From Salinispira sp. (GTDB lineage: Bacteria > Spirochaetota > Spirochaetia > DSM-27196 > Salinispiraceae), in the NCBI GenBank assembly GCA_965602015.1, contig OZ271918.1, positions 192,001-256,000 on the forward strand: a stretch of DNA of 64,000 nucleotides, written 5' to 3'. The stretch's first letter is position 1, and every line of letters begins with the position of its first letter. The notes beneath the pieces were generated by a model. That model was not told the DNA's origin. It saw nothing but the letters and a program-made list of their open reading frames with translations, and made no database searches. This document shows, one piece after another, positions 7,144 through 16,940 of the stretch. The position numbers and the translations under genes are program-made.

Positions 7144-8154
7144 ATGAAGTTAGCAGTGTTCAGTACTAAGAACTGGGTCCGCAGTGCGTTCGACCAGGCG
7201 GTCGGCACAAGCGAACTCGAATTAAACTATCTCGAACCCAGGCTGGACATTCACACGGTCAGTTTGGCAGCGGGTCACGATGCGGTGTGCGTTTTTGTAA
7301 ACGATGTTCTGGATGCGCAGGTGGTGCGCCGCCTGGCCGAGCTGGGCGTAAAAACCATTGCCCTGCGCTGTGCGGGTTTTAACAATGTGGATATCAAGGT
7401 CGCCTACGAGCTGGGAATACATGTGGTTCGGGTTCCGGCTTACAGTCCCTATGCGGTTGCTGAACATGCCGTAGGGCTGATTTTGGCCCTCAATCGCCGC
7501 TATCACCGGGCATACAATCGTATACGCGAAGGCAATTTCAGCCTGGACGGGCTGTTGGGATTCGATATTCATGGGAAGACCGTCGGCATAATCGGCACCG
7601 GAAAAATCGGACAGATTTTCGCCGGAATCATCCAGGGATTCGGAACCCGGGTGTTGGCCTACGACAAGTATCCCAGTGAAGATCTCAAGTCGAAGGGCGT
7701 GGAATATGTTGAACTAAAACAACTGTACGAGCAGTCTGACATTATCAGCCTGCATTGCCCGCTTAATCACGAGACCTATCACATAATAAATGAGTATGCC
7801 ATCAAGGATATGAAGCGGGGAGTCACGGTTATAAACACCAGCCGCGGGCCTCTCATCGACTCCAACGCAGTGATAAACGGTTTGAAAAGCGGACAGATTG
7901 CCTATCTCGGGCTCGACGTGTATGAGGAGGAGGGTGACCTGTTCTTCGAGGATCTCTCGGATCAGGTAATTCAGGACGATACCTTTGTTCGGCTCCAGAC
8001 GTTTCCCAATGTGCTGATTACCGCCCACCAGGCGTTTTTTACCAGGGAAGCAGTGGACAATATCGCCGATACCACAGTCGCGAATCTCGCAGAGCTTTAC
8101 AATGCGGGCGAGTGTAAAAATGCCGTCCTGCCCGAATCAGCCTACGGTAAATAA
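7144..8154 (+). CDS. ldhA: D-lactate dehydrogenase (D-2-hydroxyacid dehydrogenase)
   Basis: LRCAGFNNVD, VPAYSPYAVAEH, GTGKIG, NTSRG, DVYEEE, HQAFFT; next to a lactate permease. Confidence 0.9.
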   Translation: MKLAVFSTKNWVRSAFDQAVGTSELELNYLEPRLDIHTVSLAAGHDAVCVFVNDVLDAQVVRRLAELGVKTIALRCAGFNNVDIKVAYELGIHVVRVPAYSPYAVAEHAVGLILALNRRYHRAYNRIREGNFSLDGLLGFDIHGKTVGIIGTGKIGQIFAGIIQGFGTRVLAYDKYPSEDLKSKGVEYVELKQLYEQSDIISLHCPLNHETYHIINEYAIKDMKRGVTVINTSRGPLIDSNAVINGLKSGQIAYLGLDVYEEEGDLFFEDLSDQVIQDDTFVRLQTFPNVLITAHQAFFTREAVDNIADTTVANLAELYNAGECKNAVLPESAYGK

Positions 8155-8180
8155 GGGACTTCCTTAGAGGAGATACAAAA

Positions 8181-9851
8181 ATGATACTCGAAACCATTGT
8201 GAGTTTCCTTCCCATAATTCTGCTGATATGGATGATGACTAAAAAGGATGCGGTTCCATCGGCAAAGGCTTTGCCCATCACCGCTCTCATCAGCTACGGC
8301 ATTATGCTTCTGGTCTTTCGCCGTGATCCTAACCTGGTTCATGCAAATGTTCTCGATGGGCTGCTCACAGCTTGGACGCCTATCCTTATTATTTGGGGAG
8401 CAATTTTTCTGTTCAAAACGATGGAAGCCAGCGGCGCCATGGATAGCATCCGGCGCTGGCTGAACAGCGTCAGCCCCAACAAGGTGGCTCAGCTAATGAT
8501 TGTCGGATGGGCATTTCCCTTTTTGATCGAGGGAGCCAGCGGGTTTGGTACGCCGGCAGCCCTGGCCGCGCCGATACTTGTGGGTCTGGGATTCCCCGCG
8601 ATGAGGGTGGCAATCATGGCCCTGATCATGAACACCGTGCCGGTTTCATTCGGAGCGGTCGGTACACCGACCTGGTTCGGATTCGCCGGAATAGATTTAA
8701 ACGCAGCGGAAATTCTGGAGATCGGGGTGAAGTCCGCCTTCATTCACGGTGCCGCGAGCCTGATAATTCCCATCATCGCCCTTTCGTTTTTGGTTAAGTG
8801 GCGGCATATCCGGAAAAATCTGGGCTTTATCCTGCTGTCAGTAGCTGTCACCGTCATCCCCTATATTGCGGTAGCCTTCTTCAACTACGAATTTCCCGCC
8901 CTGGTGGGTGGAGGCATCGGTCTCATTTTGTCAGTGCTCATCGCTAAGCTCGGCTGGGGACTCGATCGAAGCGAAGGGCATCTGATTGAAACTCTGCGGG
9001 AACAGGGCGAACTGCCGGCCTCCAATGCGGAAACCCCGTCGTTGATCCAGGGCCACGGCGGGGTCGGTCTCTCCGACAGGGCTCCCGGTCCTGCGGAACT
9101 GGCGAGGGCAACCTTTCCCTTATGGGGCACCATTGTCATTTTGGTAATCACCCGAATACCCCAACTCGGCCTCAAGGCCCTGTTAAACCTTGAAGAACCG
9201 GCTTTGCGTCTCGCCCTGGGTAGCCTCGGCGAGTTTTCTCTCAGCCCGGCACTGAGCCTGGGGTTGTCGGAGATTTTCGGCACGACGGTGAGCTGGAGCC
9301 ACAAACTTCTCTATGTGCCGAGCATAATTCCCTTTGGGCTCATAGCGGTTTTGACCTTCTTCTGGTTTCGGATGGACCGGAAAGCCGCGGCTTCAGTGTT
9401 TGGTGACTCGGTCCGACAGCTGAACGCACCCGCAAAGGCGCTATTGGGAGCCCTGGTTTTTGTCAACCTCATGATGATGGGCGGACAGGGTTCCGCGGTG
9501 GCGCTTATCGGATCGGCTCTCTCGGGGGCAACCGGAGGAGCCTGGAAATACTTTTCAGCACTTCTCGGCGTCCTGGGAAGCTTTTTTAGCGGCTCGAACA
9601 CCGTCAGCAACCTGACCTTCGGGCCCATCCAGGATTCCATCGCCGCAAATCTCGGCCTGAATAGGACAACCATTCTGGCGCTACAGTCGGTAGGCGGTGC
9701 AATGGGGAATATGGTTTGCATAAATAACATCGTCGCCGTCAGTTCGGTACTGGCCCTGGAAAAAAGCGAAGGCTACATCCTCACCCGGACCGTCCGGGCC
9801 CTCGTTGTCTATGCTGCAGTCGCCGCCTTTATGGCTTTTTTCCTGGCGTAA
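8181..9851 (+). CDS. L-lactate permease family transporter (LctP)
   Basis: IEGASGFGTPAALAAP and GSNTVSN motifs; polytopic membrane protein. Confidence 0.9.
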   Translation: MILETIVSFLPIILLIWMMTKKDAVPSAKALPITALISYGIMLLVFRRDPNLVHANVLDGLLTAWTPILIIWGAIFLFKTMEASGAMDSIRRWLNSVSPNKVAQLMIVGWAFPFLIEGASGFGTPAALAAPILVGLGFPAMRVAIMALIMNTVPVSFGAVGTPTWFGFAGIDLNAAEILEIGVKSAFIHGAASLIIPIIALSFLVKWRHIRKNLGFILLSVAVTVIPYIAVAFFNYEFPALVGGGIGLILSVLIAKLGWGLDRSEGHLIETLREQGELPASNAETPSLIQGHGGVGLSDRAPGPAELARATFPLWGTIVILVITRIPQLGLKALLNLEEPALRLALGSLGEFSLSPALSLGLSEIFGTTVSWSHKLLYVPSIIPFGLIAVLTFFWFRMDRKAAASVFGDSVRQLNAPAKALLGALVFVNLMMMGGQGSAVALIGSALSGATGGAWKYFSALLGVLGSFFSGSNTVSNLTFGPIQDSIAANLGLNRTTILALQSVGGAMGNMVCINNIVAVSSVLALEKSEGYILTRTVRALVVYAAVAAFMAFFLA

Positions 9852-10084: not shown

Positions 10085-10318
10085 ATGAAAGAAATGACGC
10101 GTCACAATGCCGGCAGGATCTACCTGTTTCTCCTGCTATTGTCGGTAATCGGGTTTATCACCTTCCTGGCCATCGGCGGAACCCAAACCGCCCCGGGTGA
10201 AGAACCCTTTTTACTGTTCGGGTGGATGACCATTCAGTTATTCATAGGAGTCATTTTCGTACTCTTTTGGCTGGTCAGCTACATAATCTACTTCTTTTTC
10301 TTCTGGCCGTACCGATAG
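10085..10318 (+). CDS. Small two-TM membrane protein, probable accessory subunit of the SSS transporter
   Basis: Two hydrophobic helices; immediately upstream of a sodium:solute symporter, a common arrangement. Confidence 0.65.
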   Translation: MKEMTRHNAGRIYLFLLLLSVIGFITFLAIGGTQTAPGEEPFLLFGWMTIQLFIGVIFVLFWLVSYIIYFFFFWPYR

Positions 10319-10326
10319 GAGGTCCC

Positions 10327-11880
10327 ATGGCTTTTACACTTATTGCTCTCACGCTCTTTGGGGCTGTCATCGTGTTTATGGCGGCCTACGGTTACCGAAT
10401 CAGCGCCAAAACTGCCGAAGACTTTATGCTCGGCGGTCGAACCATCGGCGTCGTCGTTATGTTCTTTTTTGTACTCTTTGCGATTTCTTCAGCCTGGACC
10501 TTCTACGGATTTCCTGGTCTTCTGTATACCCAGGGACCAGGATACGTTATGTTTATCTGGGGTTCGGTAGTCGGTTTTGCCGGGCTCTATATGTTTCTTG
10601 GTCCCCGGCTGTGGGCATTGGCCAAGATAAACCGTTTTCTCTCTCCGGTTGAAGTTTTAGGTGAGCGCTATCAGTCCAAGACCCTTCGGCTCATCCTCTC
10701 TTTGAGTATTCTCGCATTCATCGTCCCCTACGTCGGCATTCAGCCCTTGGGTGTTGGAGCGGGATTCGAAGCCCTCACCGGCCTGCCTGCAGTCTGGGGT
10801 GCAGTTTATACCGCCGTCATATTAATTGTGCTGGTAATGCTTGGCGGGATGCGCATTGTGGCATGGGTTAATATCTTTCTGGGAGTCATTTACATGACTG
10901 CACTTTTGGGGAGCCTGCTATGGGCGGTAAACGTCCTGTTCCCCGACGGTGGTCTTGCCCAGGCGGCGAGCATCGTCGCCCAAACGCGACCTGAACTGCT
11001 TTCGGACCCTGGCCCTGCGGGTGCCTACACGCCGGTTGTCCTCGGAGGCACCTTCGTCGTCGGGATTCTGGCGTTCAGCTGGCCCCATGTGGCTATCGGC
11101 TGTATGACTGCCCGGGACAAGAGCCTGTTCAAGTGGTTCCCCCTGCTGATCTTTGTGTTTGGAGGCCTGTTCTTCTATATTCTTCCCTTTATTTGGGGAT
11201 CCTTGGTTGCTCCCGCGGCGATGCCCCTGGAGGAATTGCAGGCCCTGGCCAATAGCAACGGGGTTTCCCTTCAAACAGAGGCTGACCGGGTGGTTCAGAC
11301 GGTTATCAGCCGCACTCTGCCAGAATGGTTCGGCGTGTTTGTTCTGCTCGGAGTAATCGCCGCTGCGGTAAGCACCGCTGCCGTACAGCTGATGACCTCA
11401 AGCGTCATTGTCAGCCGGGACGTCATTCAGGGACTATTTAAACCCGATGCCAGTGACAAGCAGATTACCACCTGGGCCCGCTGGGCGGTTATCGGGGTTG
11501 TTGTCTTGAGCCTGATCGTCAGCTTTTTAAACCAGGGAGCCATGGCCCTCTACCTTACCGACGTGAGCGTTCCGGGATTCGCCCAGTGGGCGCCGGCCCT
11601 TGTCGGTGGGCTTCTGTGGAAACGGGGTACCAAGCAGGGAGCCATCGCGGGAACCCTTGCCGGCGTTATCTACCTGGTCCTCAGTCTGGTTATTGTCGTT
11701 AACGGCGAACGGCCTTTGGTAATCGGGCACCCGGTTATTCCCAGTCTCCTGGTGAATACCCTGGTGTACATTTTCACCAGCCTCTTTACCCGTCGGCCAA
11801 GCGAAGATATTGAATCTCAGTTCTTTGATGAAGTCGACGCCTATCTCAAGGCCGAATCAGCCGGCAAAGCGAATTCTTAG
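10327..11880 (+). CDS. Sodium:solute symporter family protein
   Basis: EDFMLGGR, SAWTFYGFPG, ERYQS, AAAVSTAA..L..S..VSRD motifs; many TM segments; GGAGG RBS. Confidence 0.9.
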   Translation: MAFTLIALTLFGAVIVFMAAYGYRISAKTAEDFMLGGRTIGVVVMFFFVLFAISSAWTFYGFPGLLYTQGPGYVMFIWGSVVGFAGLYMFLGPRLWALAKINRFLSPVEVLGERYQSKTLRLILSLSILAFIVPYVGIQPLGVGAGFEALTGLPAVWGAVYTAVILIVLVMLGGMRIVAWVNIFLGVIYMTALLGSLLWAVNVLFPDGGLAQAASIVAQTRPELLSDPGPAGAYTPVVLGGTFVVGILAFSWPHVAIGCMTARDKSLFKWFPLLIFVFGGLFFYILPFIWGSLVAPAAMPLEELQALANSNGVSLQTEADRVVQTVISRTLPEWFGVFVLLGVIAAAVSTAAVQLMTSSVIVSRDVIQGLFKPDASDKQITTWARWAVIGVVVLSLIVSFLNQGAMALYLTDVSVPGFAQWAPALVGGLLWKRGTKQGAIAGTLAGVIYLVLSLVIVVNGERPLVIGHPVIPSLLVNTLVYIFTSLFTRRPSEDIESQFFDEVDAYLKAESAGKANS

Positions 11881-11889
11881 GAGTGTGTT

Positions 11890-13398
11890 GTGAGCGAAAC
11901 GAGTAAAAAGCGCTGGAGGCTGATTTATAATCCAGAAGGGGATGTGTACGACGTCCCCAGCTACGGCGCCTCGGTAGCCGAGGGCCGCATTGCGGGAAAG
12001 TATCAACTTTCCAACACCCTGGTCCCCGACACCGTAGTGCTTCAGGCTGTAAAGCGGCCGGGAATTGTCGCCGGAGCTGATGTTACCGTCGACCGTTCCC
12101 AGGCCGAGCGCTACGGCATCGAGATCGCCCGGCTCCCGCGAAGCGGCCGCAACGGAGCCAAATCGGTGGGAACCATTCAACTCAGCGACCTCATGGCTAA
12201 ATCATCGAAAAAGTTTGAGGCCGAGGAAACCCGGCCCGATGATCCGGCAGTCCTGATTTACACCTCCGGCACTACCGGCTTGCCCAAAGGCGCGATGCTG
12301 ACTCACAGGAACTTTCATTTCCAGTGCAGCACCATTGTCACATCGCTGCTCGACTTTAAGTCCAGCGACCGGGTAATCGGAACCTTGCCGCTGTATCACA
12401 TTTTCGGCTTGGCGAACTCCATGATTTCTGCTGTCTTTTTTGGCGCAAGCCTGGTGATGATTCCCCGCTACTCTCCGCAGATACTTCTGGAGACAATAGA
12501 CAAACACAAGGCGACAATACTTCCGGCGGTTCCCACCATGTATCAGCATCTCATGTTGGCCGCCCGGATGGCGCGCAACAAATCTGTGGTGCCCAAGAGC
12601 CTTAACCACTGTATTTCCGGAGGCGCGCCGTTGAGTCAGCGCCTGTACGAAGATTTTGGCAAAACGTTTAATACGAACATCATGGAAGGCTACGGCCTCA
12701 CCGAGTCCACCTCTGCGGTGGCGGCCAACGGGGTAAACGGTGAATACCGCGACGGGTCTATCGGCAGACCGGGGAATGGCGTCGAAATGAAGATTTTCGA
12801 TGACAACGGCGAGGAAGTAGCCGCCGGAACCGAAGGGGAAATCGCCATCCGGTCCACCACTATTTTCAAGGGATACTGGAACAACGCCGAAGCGACCAGT
12901 CAGGTGCTGAGAAAAGACGGTTGGCTTCTTACCGGTGATCTTGGCTATGTCGATAAGGACGGCTTCTTTTTTATCACCGACCGCAAAAAGGACATCATCA
13001 TCCGCAGCGGTTATAACATCAGCCCGAGGGAGATCGAAGAGGTTCTGGATCTCCATGAAAACGTCCTGGAATCCGCGGTTATTTCCCGCAAAAGCGCAAA
13101 GGGCGACGAAGTGGTTGTGGCCTTTATCGTCCCCAGAAACATCCCCGAAGAGTTCGGCAGCGAAGCCTCGGACATCGACCCCGAAGCCCTTCACAACAGC
13201 GACTACGCCAGCAAAATGATCGGTGAAATGAGGGATTATGCGGATACCGGTCTTGCGCTGTACAAACAGCCCCAGGAGTACCGCATAGTGCCGAGTCTCC
13301 CCAAAACCGCAACCGGAAAGGTGCTCAGACGGGAGCTCCGTCAGAATGTGGAGGATGCGCGGCTTATTGCGAAGAGGAAGGAACATGTTCAAAGCTAA
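11890..13398 (+). CDS. Chimeric protein: LplA/LipM-like N-terminal segment (aa 1-86) fused to an acyl-CoA synthetase lacking its N-terminal subdomain
   Basis: YTSGTTGLPKG, LPLYHIFG, EGYGLTES, TGDLG, DRKKD and PKTATGK motifs; N-terminus WRLI...PDTVVL...VDRSQAERYGIEIARLPRSG resembles the start of lipoate ligases. Confidence 0.8.
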   Translation: MSETSKKRWRLIYNPEGDVYDVPSYGASVAEGRIAGKYQLSNTLVPDTVVLQAVKRPGIVAGADVTVDRSQAERYGIEIARLPRSGRNGAKSVGTIQLSDLMAKSSKKFEAEETRPDDPAVLIYTSGTTGLPKGAMLTHRNFHFQCSTIVTSLLDFKSSDRVIGTLPLYHIFGLANSMISAVFFGASLVMIPRYSPQILLETIDKHKATILPAVPTMYQHLMLAARMARNKSVVPKSLNHCISGGAPLSQRLYEDFGKTFNTNIMEGYGLTESTSAVAANGVNGEYRDGSIGRPGNGVEMKIFDDNGEEVAAGTEGEIAIRSTTIFKGYWNNAEATSQVLRKDGWLLTGDLGYVDKDGFFFITDRKKDIIIRSGYNISPREIEEVLDLHENVLESAVISRKSAKGDEVVVAFIVPRNIPEEFGSEASDIDPEALHNSDYASKMIGEMRDYADTGLALYKQPQEYRIVPSLPKTATGKVLRRELRQNVEDARLIAKRKEHVQS

Positions 13399-14326
13399 GC
13401 TATTCGGAAAGAACGAGCCCGATGTCCAGGAGCTGCCTATCGGACTCGGGAAAATGTTTGAAACCATCAGCACCCAGTTTAAACGCAAGGAAGCCATTCG
13501 ATACGAAAATCAGGTAATGAGCTACCAGGAAGCCGATGAACAGGCTAGCCGGGTCGCCGGCGGATTAAAATCCCTGGGAATCGGTCCAGGAGACAGGGTG
13601 GCAATAATGCTCCCCAACATTCCTGAGTTCTACTACAGTTTTTTCGGCATACAAAAACTCGGTGCCGTTGCAGTGCCGTTTAACACCATGTACAAGGGCC
13701 GGGAGATTACCCATATCCTTCAGGACAGCGGCGCACGGGCGGTCATCTGCCTTTCCAATTTCGCCAGTCTCATACAGGAAATTCAGCGGGACTGCCCCGA
13801 TCTTGAAAATGTCATCATTACGGGACAGCGCACCTTCGTCTACGTCGATCCCGGCTCCTCGGTGAACATTCAGATGGTTTTCGAAAAATCGAGGTTTGAA
13901 AATTTTGACGCAGCCTACCACGCCATCGGCGATGTGCTGGTGAAGACCTTTCACAGTCTCGGTGTTGTAGAAGCCTGGTACAGCCACATCGGAGCAATCC
14001 GGGCAAGCGGAAAAAAGCTCGGCACCATATTGTTGAATGAAATCGAAAACCTCTACGTGGCAAACATCGTTACCTTCCTGAAGGACATGGATAACGGACC
14101 ACTGTTCAAGGTCCTGTACATCCCTCCGGAGTTAAAAGAACGGGCGCTGGAACCCATGACGAGCATTCGGACCGAGATCGGTTCGCAGGTCAGCCTTGAA
14201 GAGTTCAAGGATGTCCTCGTCAGAAAACTCAGCGATGCTTTCGAGATCCAGTTCGATGAAGGTGGACTGACCAGGGACGAGCTCATCGCCTATGAAAAGA
14301 ACCGGGCATTGGCCGGACGGGTATGA
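13385..14326 (+). CDS. Chimeric protein: acyl-CoA synthetase N-terminal subdomain (to about aa 147) fused to an LplA/LipM-like C-terminal half
   Basis: SY.E.DE.ASRVAGGL..LGIGPGDRVAIMLPN.PEF...FFG..KLGAVAVP.N, then VYVDPG...LGV.EA...I..SGKKLG...MTSI..E.G..V..EE...GGLT.DEL; ATG at 13385 after GAGGAAGG. Confidence 0.75.
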   Translation: MFKAKLFGKNEPDVQELPIGLGKMFETISTQFKRKEAIRYENQVMSYQEADEQASRVAGGLKSLGIGPGDRVAIMLPNIPEFYYSFFGIQKLGAVAVPFNTMYKGREITHILQDSGARAVICLSNFASLIQEIQRDCPDLENVIITGQRTFVYVDPGSSVNIQMVFEKSRFENFDAAYHAIGDVLVKTFHSLGVVEAWYSHIGAIRASGKKLGTILLNEIENLYVANIVTFLKDMDNGPLFKVLYIPPELKERALEPMTSIRTEIGSQVSLEEFKDVLVRKLSDAFEIQFDEGGLTRDELIAYEKNRALAGRV

Positions 14327-14480
14327 TTTTACGGCGGTTCAGCGCCTAATATATGGAAATGAAGGCAGAGTGAATATATACTAACAGTAGCGAAGGCGGT
14401 TAACTGCGCTTAACTGACTGTGCTGCTCATCACAACATGTCATGCCCCGGTCCTCCGCAATTATTCTGGAGGCATGTACC

Positions 14481-16940
14481 ATGAAAACACTCTACCAAAT
14501 CTCGCGGGCGGCTATTCTGCTGCCCCTCATTTTCACCCTGGCTGCCTGTGATTTTTTTCCCGGTCCCTTTGGGGATGAGGCTGAAATTCATTTGTTTCAC
14601 GGTGACCGGGAAATCCTCGGCAACGACACTTTGGATTTCGGTACTGTCGGGGAGTCCGAAGTTAGCCGGCTTGTCCTGACTATACGAAATCTCGGGGAAG
14701 CCGAGCTACGCTTTACCGCGGCTCCGGAGATCAGCGGCAGCGATGCCCTGCAATTCGAAATCATCGAGGCACCGGCCTCGACCGTTGCGCCTCGGTCGAG
14801 CGGCAGCCTCAGCATAGAATTTCACCCAACGGACGCCGGTCAGATGAGCGCCGTGTGCACCCTTTATTGTAACGACCCTGTTCTGAACATATTCAGCTTT
14901 ACGTTAACCGGAAGCATGGAAGCATCAACATCGGGTGCGCCGAATCTATCAGTGAGTTCCGGCAGCGGCACGCTGTTTTCCAGCGGTGATGAAATCGATT
15001 TCGGAACCGTTACAACGGCGAACAGCACAGTCGGGTATAATCTTATTTTGGCTAACGACGGTAATGCTGATCTTAATCTCGACGGGGATATCATTATTTC
15101 CGGGGTCGATGCCGGACAGTTCGGCGTTGCCGCTCAACCGTCGGAAGCTCTCATCGCTTCGGGGGAATCGATAGATTTGATTGTGAACTACGCCCCGACG
15201 GCCGCTGGTGAGGCGCTGGCCACGGCCACCATCAGCAGCAATGATCCCGACACTCCTGATTTTGTCCTGCAGCTTCGGGGAAACTATACGCCCCCGGATC
15301 CTGTGCCTGAAATCCGGGTGGGTATTGGCGCGACGGTACTCTCCGACGGTGATACGGTTTTTTTCGGCGAAATTACCGATGACTCGAGTTCCGCAAGAGT
15401 TTTCCGCATAGAGAACCTGGGAACCGGCGATCTGGCATTATTCGGCGTTGGCATAGACGGGGACGCCTACAATGAGTTCTCACTTACCGCGGCTCCTCCT
15501 GCCAGCATACTTCCGGGCGAATGGGCTGATGTCGAGGTCATATATGATCCGGCGGAGCCCGGGGAGTCTTTGGCCGCGCTGAATATCACAAGCGATGACG
15601 CCGATGAGGGAAGCGTTTCCTTGATACTCCGGGGTGTATACTCGCCGCCGGCCCAGCTTTTCTACGTGGAATTCGACAGCCTTGGAGACGACTCTTTTAT
15701 CCTCGCTGCGGATATCGCCGCAAACGGAGATATCTACATGGCGGGGCGAACCTATGTCACCGCCGATCATGCTGACATATTCGTCGCGAAAGTCTCCTCC
15801 GATGGAGTTCCCGATGCCGGCTTCGGCAGCGGCGGATTTTTTATCTTTCCCGGCAGCGCCGATAAACTGGACAGCGTGCGCAGCATCGAGCTGATAGAGA
15901 GCGCCGGTGTGGTACAGAAAATCCTCCTCGGAGCATACACCTACCTGGGAACATCATCGACATACAACGATTCCACGGTCATTCAGCTAAACGCCGACGG
16001 AACTCTCGACACAGCCTTCGGCGGCGGAGACGGATACTATCTGGTAGATAACCCAACCAGGCCATCCAGCGGGTTTATCTGCCGCGATCCTTCCACCGGA
16101 AACATCTATGTGCCCTACGGCGAAGTTGGCGGAACATTTAATGCCAGAATCATCCGCCTGAACTCTTCAGGCGCCCTGGACAATAGCTTCAACGGAAGCG
16201 GATATCTTGATATTGACGCCTACGGCTGGACAGACTATTCACGATGGTTTTATTGCTACGGAGGAATGCTGTACTATCCGGTCTATTCATACGTCTACGG
16301 CAACAATGACAAGGCCTACGGGGGCATTCTTCGCTACAACCTTGACGGCAGTCTGGATACGAGCTTTGGGGAAACCAACGCCGGGGCAACGAACTACGGA
16401 GCCACCAACTCCGGCAAGCAGGGCTGGGCCATGTGGCCGCCGTATAACGACGTTGCCAGCGGTCAATGGGAAGACGCATCCAGTTATATCGCATTCGGAG
16501 CGGACGGTACCCTCTACCTCACCGGCCGGGACGCTCTTTCGAACAACGGGGCGACTCAGCGGGGCTATGTGGTGAAATTCAGCAATGACGGCGTCTTGGA
16601 CAGCTCATACGGTACCGGCGGAGCCTATTATGACACCGGCGGAACCGGAAGCGACAACGCTTCCACCCACTACCTTTGCATCGACTCCCTGGGAAACGCA
16701 TATGTGAGAGGGGCGGACTACAATCTTGATCCCCGGGATGACTATATTTTCAAACTGGATGCCAATGGAGATTTGGATACGACCTTCGCCGGCGACGGAT
16801 ATCTTCGCAACAGCGAGCGGAATTTTAATCACGGAACGCCGGTGTATGTGGATGATGATCACATCCTCATTCTCGGTCGCAACGAACTTACAGGAAAGCC
16901 CGCGGCATATATGATCGATGCCCAGGGAAATCCGAAATAA
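14481..16940 (+). CDS. Surface lipoprotein with three Ig-like (choice-of-anchor D/ASH-like) domains and delta-60-like repeats
   Basis: Lipobox LAA-C; three repeats of (D/F)FG.V...(I/L).N.G...L...I.G.D...F...P; repeated (L/Y)N.DG.LD..FG motif. Confidence 0.75.
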   Translation: MKTLYQISRAAILLPLIFTLAACDFFPGPFGDEAEIHLFHGDREILGNDTLDFGTVGESEVSRLVLTIRNLGEAELRFTAAPEISGSDALQFEIIEAPASTVAPRSSGSLSIEFHPTDAGQMSAVCTLYCNDPVLNIFSFTLTGSMEASTSGAPNLSVSSGSGTLFSSGDEIDFGTVTTANSTVGYNLILANDGNADLNLDGDIIISGVDAGQFGVAAQPSEALIASGESIDLIVNYAPTAAGEALATATISSNDPDTPDFVLQLRGNYTPPDPVPEIRVGIGATVLSDGDTVFFGEITDDSSSARVFRIENLGTGDLALFGVGIDGDAYNEFSLTAAPPASILPGEWADVEVIYDPAEPGESLAALNITSDDADEGSVSLILRGVYSPPAQLFYVEFDSLGDDSFILAADIAANGDIYMAGRTYVTADHADIFVAKVSSDGVPDAGFGSGGFFIFPGSADKLDSVRSIELIESAGVVQKILLGAYTYLGTSSTYNDSTVIQLNADGTLDTAFGGGDGYYLVDNPTRPSSGFICRDPSTGNIYVPYGEVGGTFNARIIRLNSSGALDNSFNGSGYLDIDAYGWTDYSRWFYCYGGMLYYPVYSYVYGNNDKAYGGILRYNLDGSLDTSFGETNAGATNYGATNSGKQGWAMWPPYNDVASGQWEDASSYIAFGADGTLYLTGRDALSNNGATQRGYVVKFSNDGVLDSSYGTGGAYYDTGGTGSDNASTHYLCIDSLGNAYVRGADYNLDPRDDYIFKLDANGDLDTTFAGDGYLRNSERNFNHGTPVYVDDDHILILGRNELTGKPAAYMIDAQGNPK

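Follow-up and report, generated by a model that had tools for sequence, protein, structure and literature searches.

Why should two adjacent, overlapping bacterial genes each encode half of one enzyme joined to half of another, unrelated one? That question is raised by a gene pair from Salinispira sp. (GenBank assembly GCA_965602015.1, contig OZ271918.1, positions 192,001 to 256,000 of the forward strand), i.e., from a stretch of 64,000 nucleotides (nt), here 'the window', whose own numbering is used throughout. Gene 1 (11890-13398, plus strand) starts with GTG and encodes 502 amino acids (aa), and gene 2 (13385-14326, plus strand) encodes 313 aa, with the two overlapping by 14 nt. The first part of the answer is that an acyl-CoA synthetase (ACS) and a lipoate ligase-like protein of the LplA type ('Lpl') have each been divided within a fold, with halves exchanged reciprocally between the two genes. 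That arrangement, put forward in an original prediction made without database searches, is real and conserved, and the reciprocal architecture is confirmed.

Four parts can be distinguished, all on the plus strand. Gene 1 residues 1-86 (11890..12147) represent the N-terminal third of an LplA-type catalytic fold and include a family-specific motif at residues 31-41. Gene 1 residues 87-502 (12148..13398) are an ACS lacking its first subdomain, with the P-loop, A5, A7, A8, A10, and C-domain present. The missing ACS subdomain is found instead as gene 2 residues 1-147 (13385..13825), following which, as residues 148-313 (13826..14326), are the C-terminal two-thirds of the LplA-type catalytic fold, with Lys211 kept, Ala204 at the position of an otherwise conserved Asp, and no LplB domain. 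The source annotations for both genes are nonetheless simply 'long-chain acyl-CoA synthetase' or 'AMP-binding protein', that is, the swap is invisible to annotation.

The division of the ACS is seen directly with Pfam. AMP-binding is matched on gene 1 by profile positions 151-384 only (residues 103-330, E 1e-65), with AMP-binding_C matched as well, and on gene 2 by profile positions 2-115 only (residues 26-136, E 6e-31). A single profile is shared out between both genes, that is, and in reversed order, its C-part lying upstream and its N-part downstream, such that the ACS N-terminal domain is complete in neither polypeptide. Gene 2 additionally matches Pfam LplA-B_cat (profile positions 68-199, residues 152-282, E 1e-7), which is above the cut-off.

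Less immediately obvious is the identity of gene 1 residues 1-86, which alone match nothing in Pfam or NCBIfam and whose profile reaches a non-significant E of only 0.5 against canonical bacterial LplA. A HMMER search using the gene 2 C-half, i.e., the Lpl C-half, returned 34 proteins, of which 12 are unsplit and LplA-like. Residues 1-76 of these 12 are covered by the N-half profile from gene 1 (HHalign probability 97.4, E 9e-12) and residues 82-243 by the C-half from gene 2 (probability 99.9). The N-half test is an independent one since the unsplit relatives were found without using the N-half, and the ACS parts, serving as controls, gave probabilities of 0.3 and 1.0. Consistently, an hmmsearch of the N-half over 11,395 sequences placed unsplit LplA-like proteins as all of its top five non-self matches (best E 3e-7, versus 0.91 for the best background match). 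The assignment of residues 1-86 as an LplA-type start thus was borne out by profile match to unsplit LplA-like proteins only. Both junctions likewise lie where they had been predicted, with the Lpl fold broken at the RRxxGGG loop.

Predicted structures tell much the same story for gene 2, for which the AlphaFold model has a pLDDT of 86.8. Its residues ~15-150 match the first 136 residues of the ACS 3R44 (Z 14.9, root-mean-square deviation 2.3, 134 aligned), that is, the N-terminal ~135 residues of ANL enzymes, and its residues ~150-313 match LplA/BPL folds, including chain residues 77-250 of Thermoplasma acidophilum LplA, 2ARS (Z 13.2, deviation 3.3, 148 aligned). The gene 1 model (pLDDT 86.2) matches ANL enzymes, mostly from chain residue ~140-150 onward, and residues 1-86 are modelled as beta-alpha-beta-beta-alpha-beta. 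As ANL enzymes alone were among the matches in the fold search with this model, the LplA/BPL catalytic fold is recognized by structure for the C-half and by profile for the N-half. The Lpl C-half profile, set against PDB sequences, matched just 2ARS and 3R07, at E 0.4-0.5.

Nor is the architecture unique to this assembly. Searches with the two Lpl halves yielded 109 and 108 homolog clusters, nearly all of the same length and with Pfam AMP-binding. Among 77 genome loci, the gene 2 architecture is seen in 73, the gene 1 architecture in 65, and both, in the same order, in 64. Of the other 13, nine are cut off at the end of a contig, two are ordinary ACS genes, one is a small fragment, and one (L085) is an aberrant in-frame form. 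Frameshifts are present in two of the 64 complete loci (L082 and L088). Hosts, as judged by record title, are mostly Spirochaetota, with a close homolog on record from Salinispira pacifica, and include as well Fibrobacterota, Latescibacterota, Clostridiales, and deltaproteobacteria. Another phylum supplied eight strong matches in 301 genomes (both genes seen in seven), a third supplied matches in six of 151 genomes, and one of the homolog cluster members is from TA06.

All four parts, furthermore, are under purifying selection and similarly constrained, with dN/dS of 0.03-0.06 for one genome pair (about 0.03 for gene 1 residues 1-86) at a dS of about 2, which is near saturation; selection had been suggested by the original prediction given two intact reading frames. 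In a tree of 49 Lpl C-halves, the 23 split forms make up one clade (support 100/100) which is nested within an unsplit LplA-like family (named members from Asgard and Sulfolobus). Across 61 related genomes, the C-half is found in 39 and the N-half in 40, with both halves in 36, neither in 18, and one only in seven. Of these discordant genomes, six have the gene at a contig end, and in the remaining one (G004) gene 1 is damaged. The two genes' halves match also in copy number, and except at contig ends, gene 1 was never seen both intact and alone. A need for both chains, as had been proposed, is therefore likely.

Some copies are damaged or aberrant (L085:3235-4332, L082, L088, L208 of G004, and L214 of G471), variously displaying an in-frame ACS C-part fragment joined to gene 2, frameshifts, internal deletions, or a 5'-truncated gene 1. 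These may represent either decay or assembly errors.

What, then, might such a pair of chains do? Based on their complementary halves and co-occurrence, a heterodimer is predicted. With high confidence, its chains would pass from one fold to the other at the RRxxGGG loop of Lpl and at the loop that precedes the P-loop of the ACS, together rebuilding both folds. With confidence only slightly less, the rebuilt ACS would convert an imported carboxylic acid first to acyl-AMP and then to acyl-CoA, and to that same degree the Lpl half should not be a self-sufficient lipoate ligase. Inter-chain covariation over 74 paired rows (73 loci plus the window; effectively ~42) displayed no overall enrichment in cognate blocks: these few rows placed 13 and 29 of the top 100 pairs in the cognate blocks versus 9.4 and 36.8 expected. 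Separately, gene 1 has a C-terminal tail extending past the ACS C-domain (window 13340-13398) in which Arg491 is found in 133 of 133 homologs and Asp489 is nearly invariant. As the single-chain model places this tail with low confidence, it may make contact with the other chain.

The core chemistry is probably that of an ordinary acyl-CoA ligase. Across 133 gene 1 homologs, the P-loop, A5, A7, A8 Gly374, and A10 Lys477 are invariant or nearly so, with Gly374 and Lys477 each present in 72 of the 73 paired loci (one gap). Of the four parts, it is the ACS N-subdomain, on gene 2, which is most conserved, at 79% mean column identity. Judging from family scores, the substrate would be a fatty or aryl acid, the best NCBIfam match, NF004837, being under its cut-off. 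Two ordinary-length ACS genes (L090:7983-9494 and L091:7947-9452) share the N-subdomain motif of gene 2, have deviant P-loop and A5 motifs, and are positioned before glmS and kdsA-like genes. There is also an antisense reading frame over gene 1 (window 12202-13497, minus strand, 431 aa), with similar antisense frames in most loci, which is probably a shadow of the coding strand.

The Lpl half presents a different picture. RRxxGGG is the lipoate-binding loop, called crucial in a portion of PMC9307952, and here the chain break falls inside of it, with the loop's Arg pair variable (the first position is Arg in 58 of 133 homologs, and the second is usually Ala, Thr, Met, or Tyr) and the GxxQ stretch shortened. 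The position of the catalytic lysine, which is Lys133 in E. coli LplA according to that same portion, is retained as Lys211 (Lys in 122 of 126 homologs, Arg in four), and the Gly of KxxG is replaced by Thr in 95 of 126, with Gly kept in deep branches. Missing entirely is the conserved Asp before the lysine strand (0 of 126; in the tree, none of the 23 split rows has it and all 26 unsplit rows do). In LplA, this Asp has a role in ATP/Mg binding. Gene 2 ends with the catalytic domain, and an LplB domain, present in 10 of 12 unsplit relatives, was found neither on gene 2 nor adjacently, a distant stand-alone lplB not having been searched for. LipB/LipM octanoyltransferases rely on a Cys/Lys dyad (PMC9307952, in part), and over the 73 paired loci the best Cys columns reach only 15 of 73 in the C-half and one of 73 in the N-half. 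By these motif tests, the gene pair belongs to neither LplA nor LipB/LipM. Simple erosion of the old site is nonetheless unlikely, as an aromatic residue persists at the Phe78-equivalent position (Phe in 112 and Tyr in 12 of 126) and new invariant residues, W198, Y199, G203, R206, and E221, are found nearby; given these new residues, the Lpl half probably binds something.

The host genome also encodes LplA, LipB, LipA, and GcvH. A link to lipoate auxotrophy was considered and rejected, as lipA is not depleted in cassette hosts (34 of 39 genomes with the gene pair versus 15 of 22 others). No GcvH or lipoyl-domain gene was found in 81 loci, with biotin-carrier-type matches in three; among controls, GcvH was found at three of six other Lpl loci, and none of the 30 short loci of canonical LplA had it. 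Also atypical is the unsplit parent family, whose proteins of ~365 aa combine an LplA with an LplB domain and fall under all NCBIfam ligase cut-offs (loci L146-L149 and L153; proteins P0232, P0236, P0238, P0239, P0240, P0245-P0247, P0249, and P0250). GcvH or lipoyl genes are present at 0 of 20 parent-family loci, and in one lineage the family resides inside a beta-oxidation cluster containing acyl-CoA dehydrogenase, enoyl-CoA hydratase, thiolases, SCP2, and an ACS.

The pair, additionally, is not on its own. Upstream are two genes which belong to the same unit and which were absent from the original prediction, such that the usual order is small membrane protein, Na+/solute symporter, gene 1, gene 2. 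In the window, the former is a 77-aa reading frame (10085..10318, plus strand) lacking any significant Pfam match, with homologs in 47 of 50 loci having at least 2 kb upstream of gene 1, and it is likely a symporter accessory subunit. The latter (SSF; 10327..11880, plus strand; 517 aa; Pfam SSF E 2.5e-29) precedes gene 1 in 57 of the 60 loci that extend far enough to show it. It scores under the NCBIfam cut-offs for PanF, PutP, MctP, and ActP, the best being PanF at 122.8 versus a cut-off of 328. This symporter subfamily is largely confined to the cassette, with close relatives in eight of 301 genomes, i.e., five cassette hosts, two genomes in which the gene directly follows an ordinary ACS gene, and one whose relative is 29% identical. 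In one lineage, an ActP/MctC-like monocarboxylate symporter replaces the usual one. No other widely recurring neighbor gene, including recurrent NRPS genes, and no recurrent downstream gene was seen among the 77 loci. A conserved symporter next to the gene pair suggests that a carboxylic acid is taken up and activated with CoA. In each of two genomes, G010 (L041/L050) and G055 (L044/L055), the gene pair is present as two divergent copies, and at the loci covered the symporter is upstream of only one of them.

A more specific tie between symporter and Lpl half comes from the motif at gene 1 residues 31-41, within which the N-half has an insertion relative to the parent family. This motif was scored out of 10 in the 73 paired loci. 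In the 61 loci with a cognate symporter, scores are 5-10, with 51 of them perfect. Of the other 12, which lack that symporter locally, four are cut off ahead of the motif, three keep it (two being second copies whose sister copy has the symporter and one being at a contig start), and five score just 2-4. These five represent four genomes, in none of which was the cognate symporter found, and their other regions are about as conserved as in controls. Overall, the motif is degraded in four of the five genomes where the cognate symporter was not found. A tree of 27 ACS C-parts, from which three intended rows are absent, forces at least two independent motif losses, and one motif-loss copy absent from that tree is 77% identical to a copy keeping both motif and symporter. 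The gene 2 last-helix motif is lost as well in two of the four motif-loss genomes, and five further new loci with the symporter retain the motif core (5-6 of 10).

From these various observations comes the reading preferred here, at somewhat short of an even chance, which is that the two chains interlock as one acyl-CoA ligase and that its Lpl half, as a non-catalytic pseudo-ligase domain, docks this ligase on the symporter. Its most exposed step, given an even chance, is docking itself: the symporter or the small subunit would be bound at the surface of gene 1 residues 31-41, perhaps aided by the final helix of gene 2, and uptake would thereby be coupled to activation. A fuller version, to be taken as slightly more tentative still, has an ancient reciprocal swap giving rise to a cross-braced enzyme in which both folds exist only in trans, with the Lpl half as a coupler docking on a dedicated Na+ symporter and perhaps still using its lysine site to sense or pass on the activated acyl group.

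A number of points weigh against docking. The motif-symporter link rests on four metagenome-assembled genomes which are incomplete, and given so few of them the association is a lead and not proof. One genome without a cognate symporter (G471) keeps the motif, its gene 1 being 5'-truncated, and deep-branch controls reach just 5-7 of 10. One motif-loss copy also carries a P-loop substitution, making general decay possible. As ordinary ACS genes are found beside related symporters without any Lpl, the Lpl module is not essential to such coupling. Retention of Lys211 alongside new invariant residues, lastly, suggests ligand binding or chemistry at the old site.

Two rival explanations concern the role of the Lpl half. 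In one, which is unlikely, the heterodimeric ligase is the same and the Lpl half is either a ligand sensor, binding AMP, CoA, or the acyl-CoA product allosterically, or purely structural, reflecting a swap that cannot be undone, in both cases without transporter contact. The kept Lys211 and Phe78-equivalent aromatic, the new invariant residues, the similar constraint on all four parts, and the binding of CoA and C8-CoA by LipB, which has the same fold (as reported within PMC9307952), would all fit. Left unexplained is a decay confined to residues 31-41 in genomes where no cognate symporter was found, and a purely structural role does not predict an invariant Arg, Trp, and Tyr. In the other, somewhat more doubtful still, an acid such as lipoate or octanoate would be activated by the ACS and then passed on by the Lpl half, out of acyl-AMP or acyl-CoA, to a lysine of some protein. 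The ACS would in this way stand in for a lost adenylation function, and the symporter would supply what is either a salvage pathway of two steps or a new kind of acylation system. What the Lpl half has lost, i.e., Asp and LplB, does concern adenylation, which an ACS could supply; the catalytic Lys is kept, as is the KxxG Gly in deep-branching members, and LipB accepts C8-CoA (again from a portion of PMC9307952). The cut lipoate-binding loop, the missing Arg pair, the Gly-to-Thr and occasional Lys-to-Arg replacements, and the want of a conserved Cys nevertheless tell against transfer, as do the coexisting canonical LplA, LipB, and LipA and, weakly given that short canonical LplA loci are no different, the missing lipoyl or GcvH genes. 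Channelling of an acyl-adenylate to a transferase-like site, as the original prediction had envisaged, is weakened for these same reasons: the Lpl site is without Arg pair, glycine loop, Asp, Cys, and LplB, there is no acceptor gene in the 81 loci, the ACS keeps its A8 glycine, and the host has separate LplA, LipB, and LipA. Overall, the earlier interpretation is partly supported.

The other two rivals question the pairing itself. The gene 1 product could work without gene 2, in the manner of phenylacetate-CoA ligase, making these linked genes and not an obligate pair. A natural ANL enzyme without its first subdomain (reference residues 1-150) is indeed functional, per part of PMC4432964, and each chain is modelled singly at a pLDDT of about 86. 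Against this are the high conservation of the gene 2 ACS N-subdomain and the co-occurrence of halves at equal copy number, without an intact lone gene 1 away from a contig end, which leave the idea very improbable. An assembly artefact, or a recent and reversible rearrangement of ordinary lplA and acs genes, is already refuted and has a probability close to nil. It has in its favor a gene order resembling that of an integrated circle, and nothing else. Set against it are the many independent loci from several phyla, purifying selection, the single clade, junctions conserved at a dS of about 2, and contigs that are continuous, for which reasons the architecture is not a misassembly. Contigs assembled from two of four sequencing runs cover 11400-14600 in one piece, over both junctions and with zero differences, all four runs being of one sample which possibly was the source of the window DNA. 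A reading as site-specific recombination or phase switching was rejected, as just one 9-mer is shared and it does not line up with the junctions, and no in-register repeat spans both of them. Window positions 11597-11621 and 11770-11787 have short matches to an unrelated 6.5-kb contig, with loose ends in the runs, which probably is chance.

As to origin, the gene order fits insertion of a circularized ACS gene into an lpl gene and fits also an excision and reinsertion from an lpl-acs operon. No intermediate form of rearrangement was found. Zero of 18 parent-family loci, with 35 of the neighboring proteins scanned, have the cassette symporter or an ACS directly beside, i.e., as an ancestral unsplit operon might. 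A natural single-chain fusion of 549-2000 aa likewise is missing from 956 candidates, which is weak evidence.

Other genes surround the unit. Directly upstream (window 7144-9851, plus strand) are a D-2-hydroxyacid dehydrogenase and an L-lactate permease, which are not recurrent in related loci. Outside of the conserved unit on its other side (window 14442-16940, plus strand) is a gene for a protein of 832 aa, probably located at the surface, which combines Ig-like (HYDIN/ASH) repeats with a DUF5122 beta-propeller. About six related loci (e.g., L053, L044, and L031) have an FdrA/AllG/AllH-type cluster downstream of the cassette, on the minus strand.

Novelty lies in the architecture, which is new as far as searched, with the chemistry probably conventional. 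No description was found in open-access PMC and bioRxiv literature, subscription journals and supplements being outside of that search, and the ligase tables of PMC10332631 could contain these proteins unrecognized. This is a natural and long-conserved case of two unrelated enzyme folds split mid-fold and exchanged between adjacent genes, suggesting a route to obligate heterodimers and pseudo-enzyme domains, and it marks tolerated split points in two folds which are used for protein engineering. The four genes are also a compact system for testing physical coupling between uptake and CoA activation. Were the preferred reading of docking by the pseudo-ligase true, then the unit would amount to a transporter-ligase complex carrying out vectorial acylation in bacteria.

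How does the gene pair compare with known systems? With class I ACSs (FadD/LcfB type; 4CL, FadD13, 4-chlorobenzoate-CoA ligase) it shares, both genes combined, the core motifs and two-domain fold, differing in that the enzyme is spread over two chains whose order is reversed and which each also carry half of an unrelated fold, and in the extra conserved C-terminal tail with invariant Arg491. With LplA (2ARS, E. coli LplA) and the unsplit ~365-aa family (Asgard, Sulfolobales, some bacteria) it has in common the fold and lysine, differing in its split at the RRxxGGG loop, its loss of Arg pair, Asp, and LplB, and its insertion-bearing motif at residues 31-41. The operon acs-yjcH-actP has the layout of a small membrane protein, SSS symporter, and acyl-CoA synthetase. 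The four-gene unit is similar in those components, and in one lineage in having an ActP/MctC-like symporter, but it employs another SSS subfamily and a synthetase which is split and carries an Lpl fold.

Rearrangements are known as well for each fold individually. Bipartite LplA-LplB and permuted Lpl(BA), as covered in part of PMC10332631, are rearranged between domains and not inside of the catalytic domain. Phenylacetate-CoA ligase, with its atrophied AMP-binding domain, is without the same first subdomain as gene 1 (PMC4432964, in part); there, however, homodimer contacts replace the subdomain, whereas here it is highly conserved on the next gene. Comparable in placement, presumably, given where the ACS cut would fall relative to a2, are interrupted NRPS adenylation domains of the a2-a3 type (e.g., TioN), in which a foreign domain is found before the a3 P-loop, an insertion-tolerant site. 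Those, at least as described in sections of PMC8341866, are single chains with an intact and active methyltransferase insert, and the gene pair is not one of them: here the guest fold itself is halved, and over two chains.

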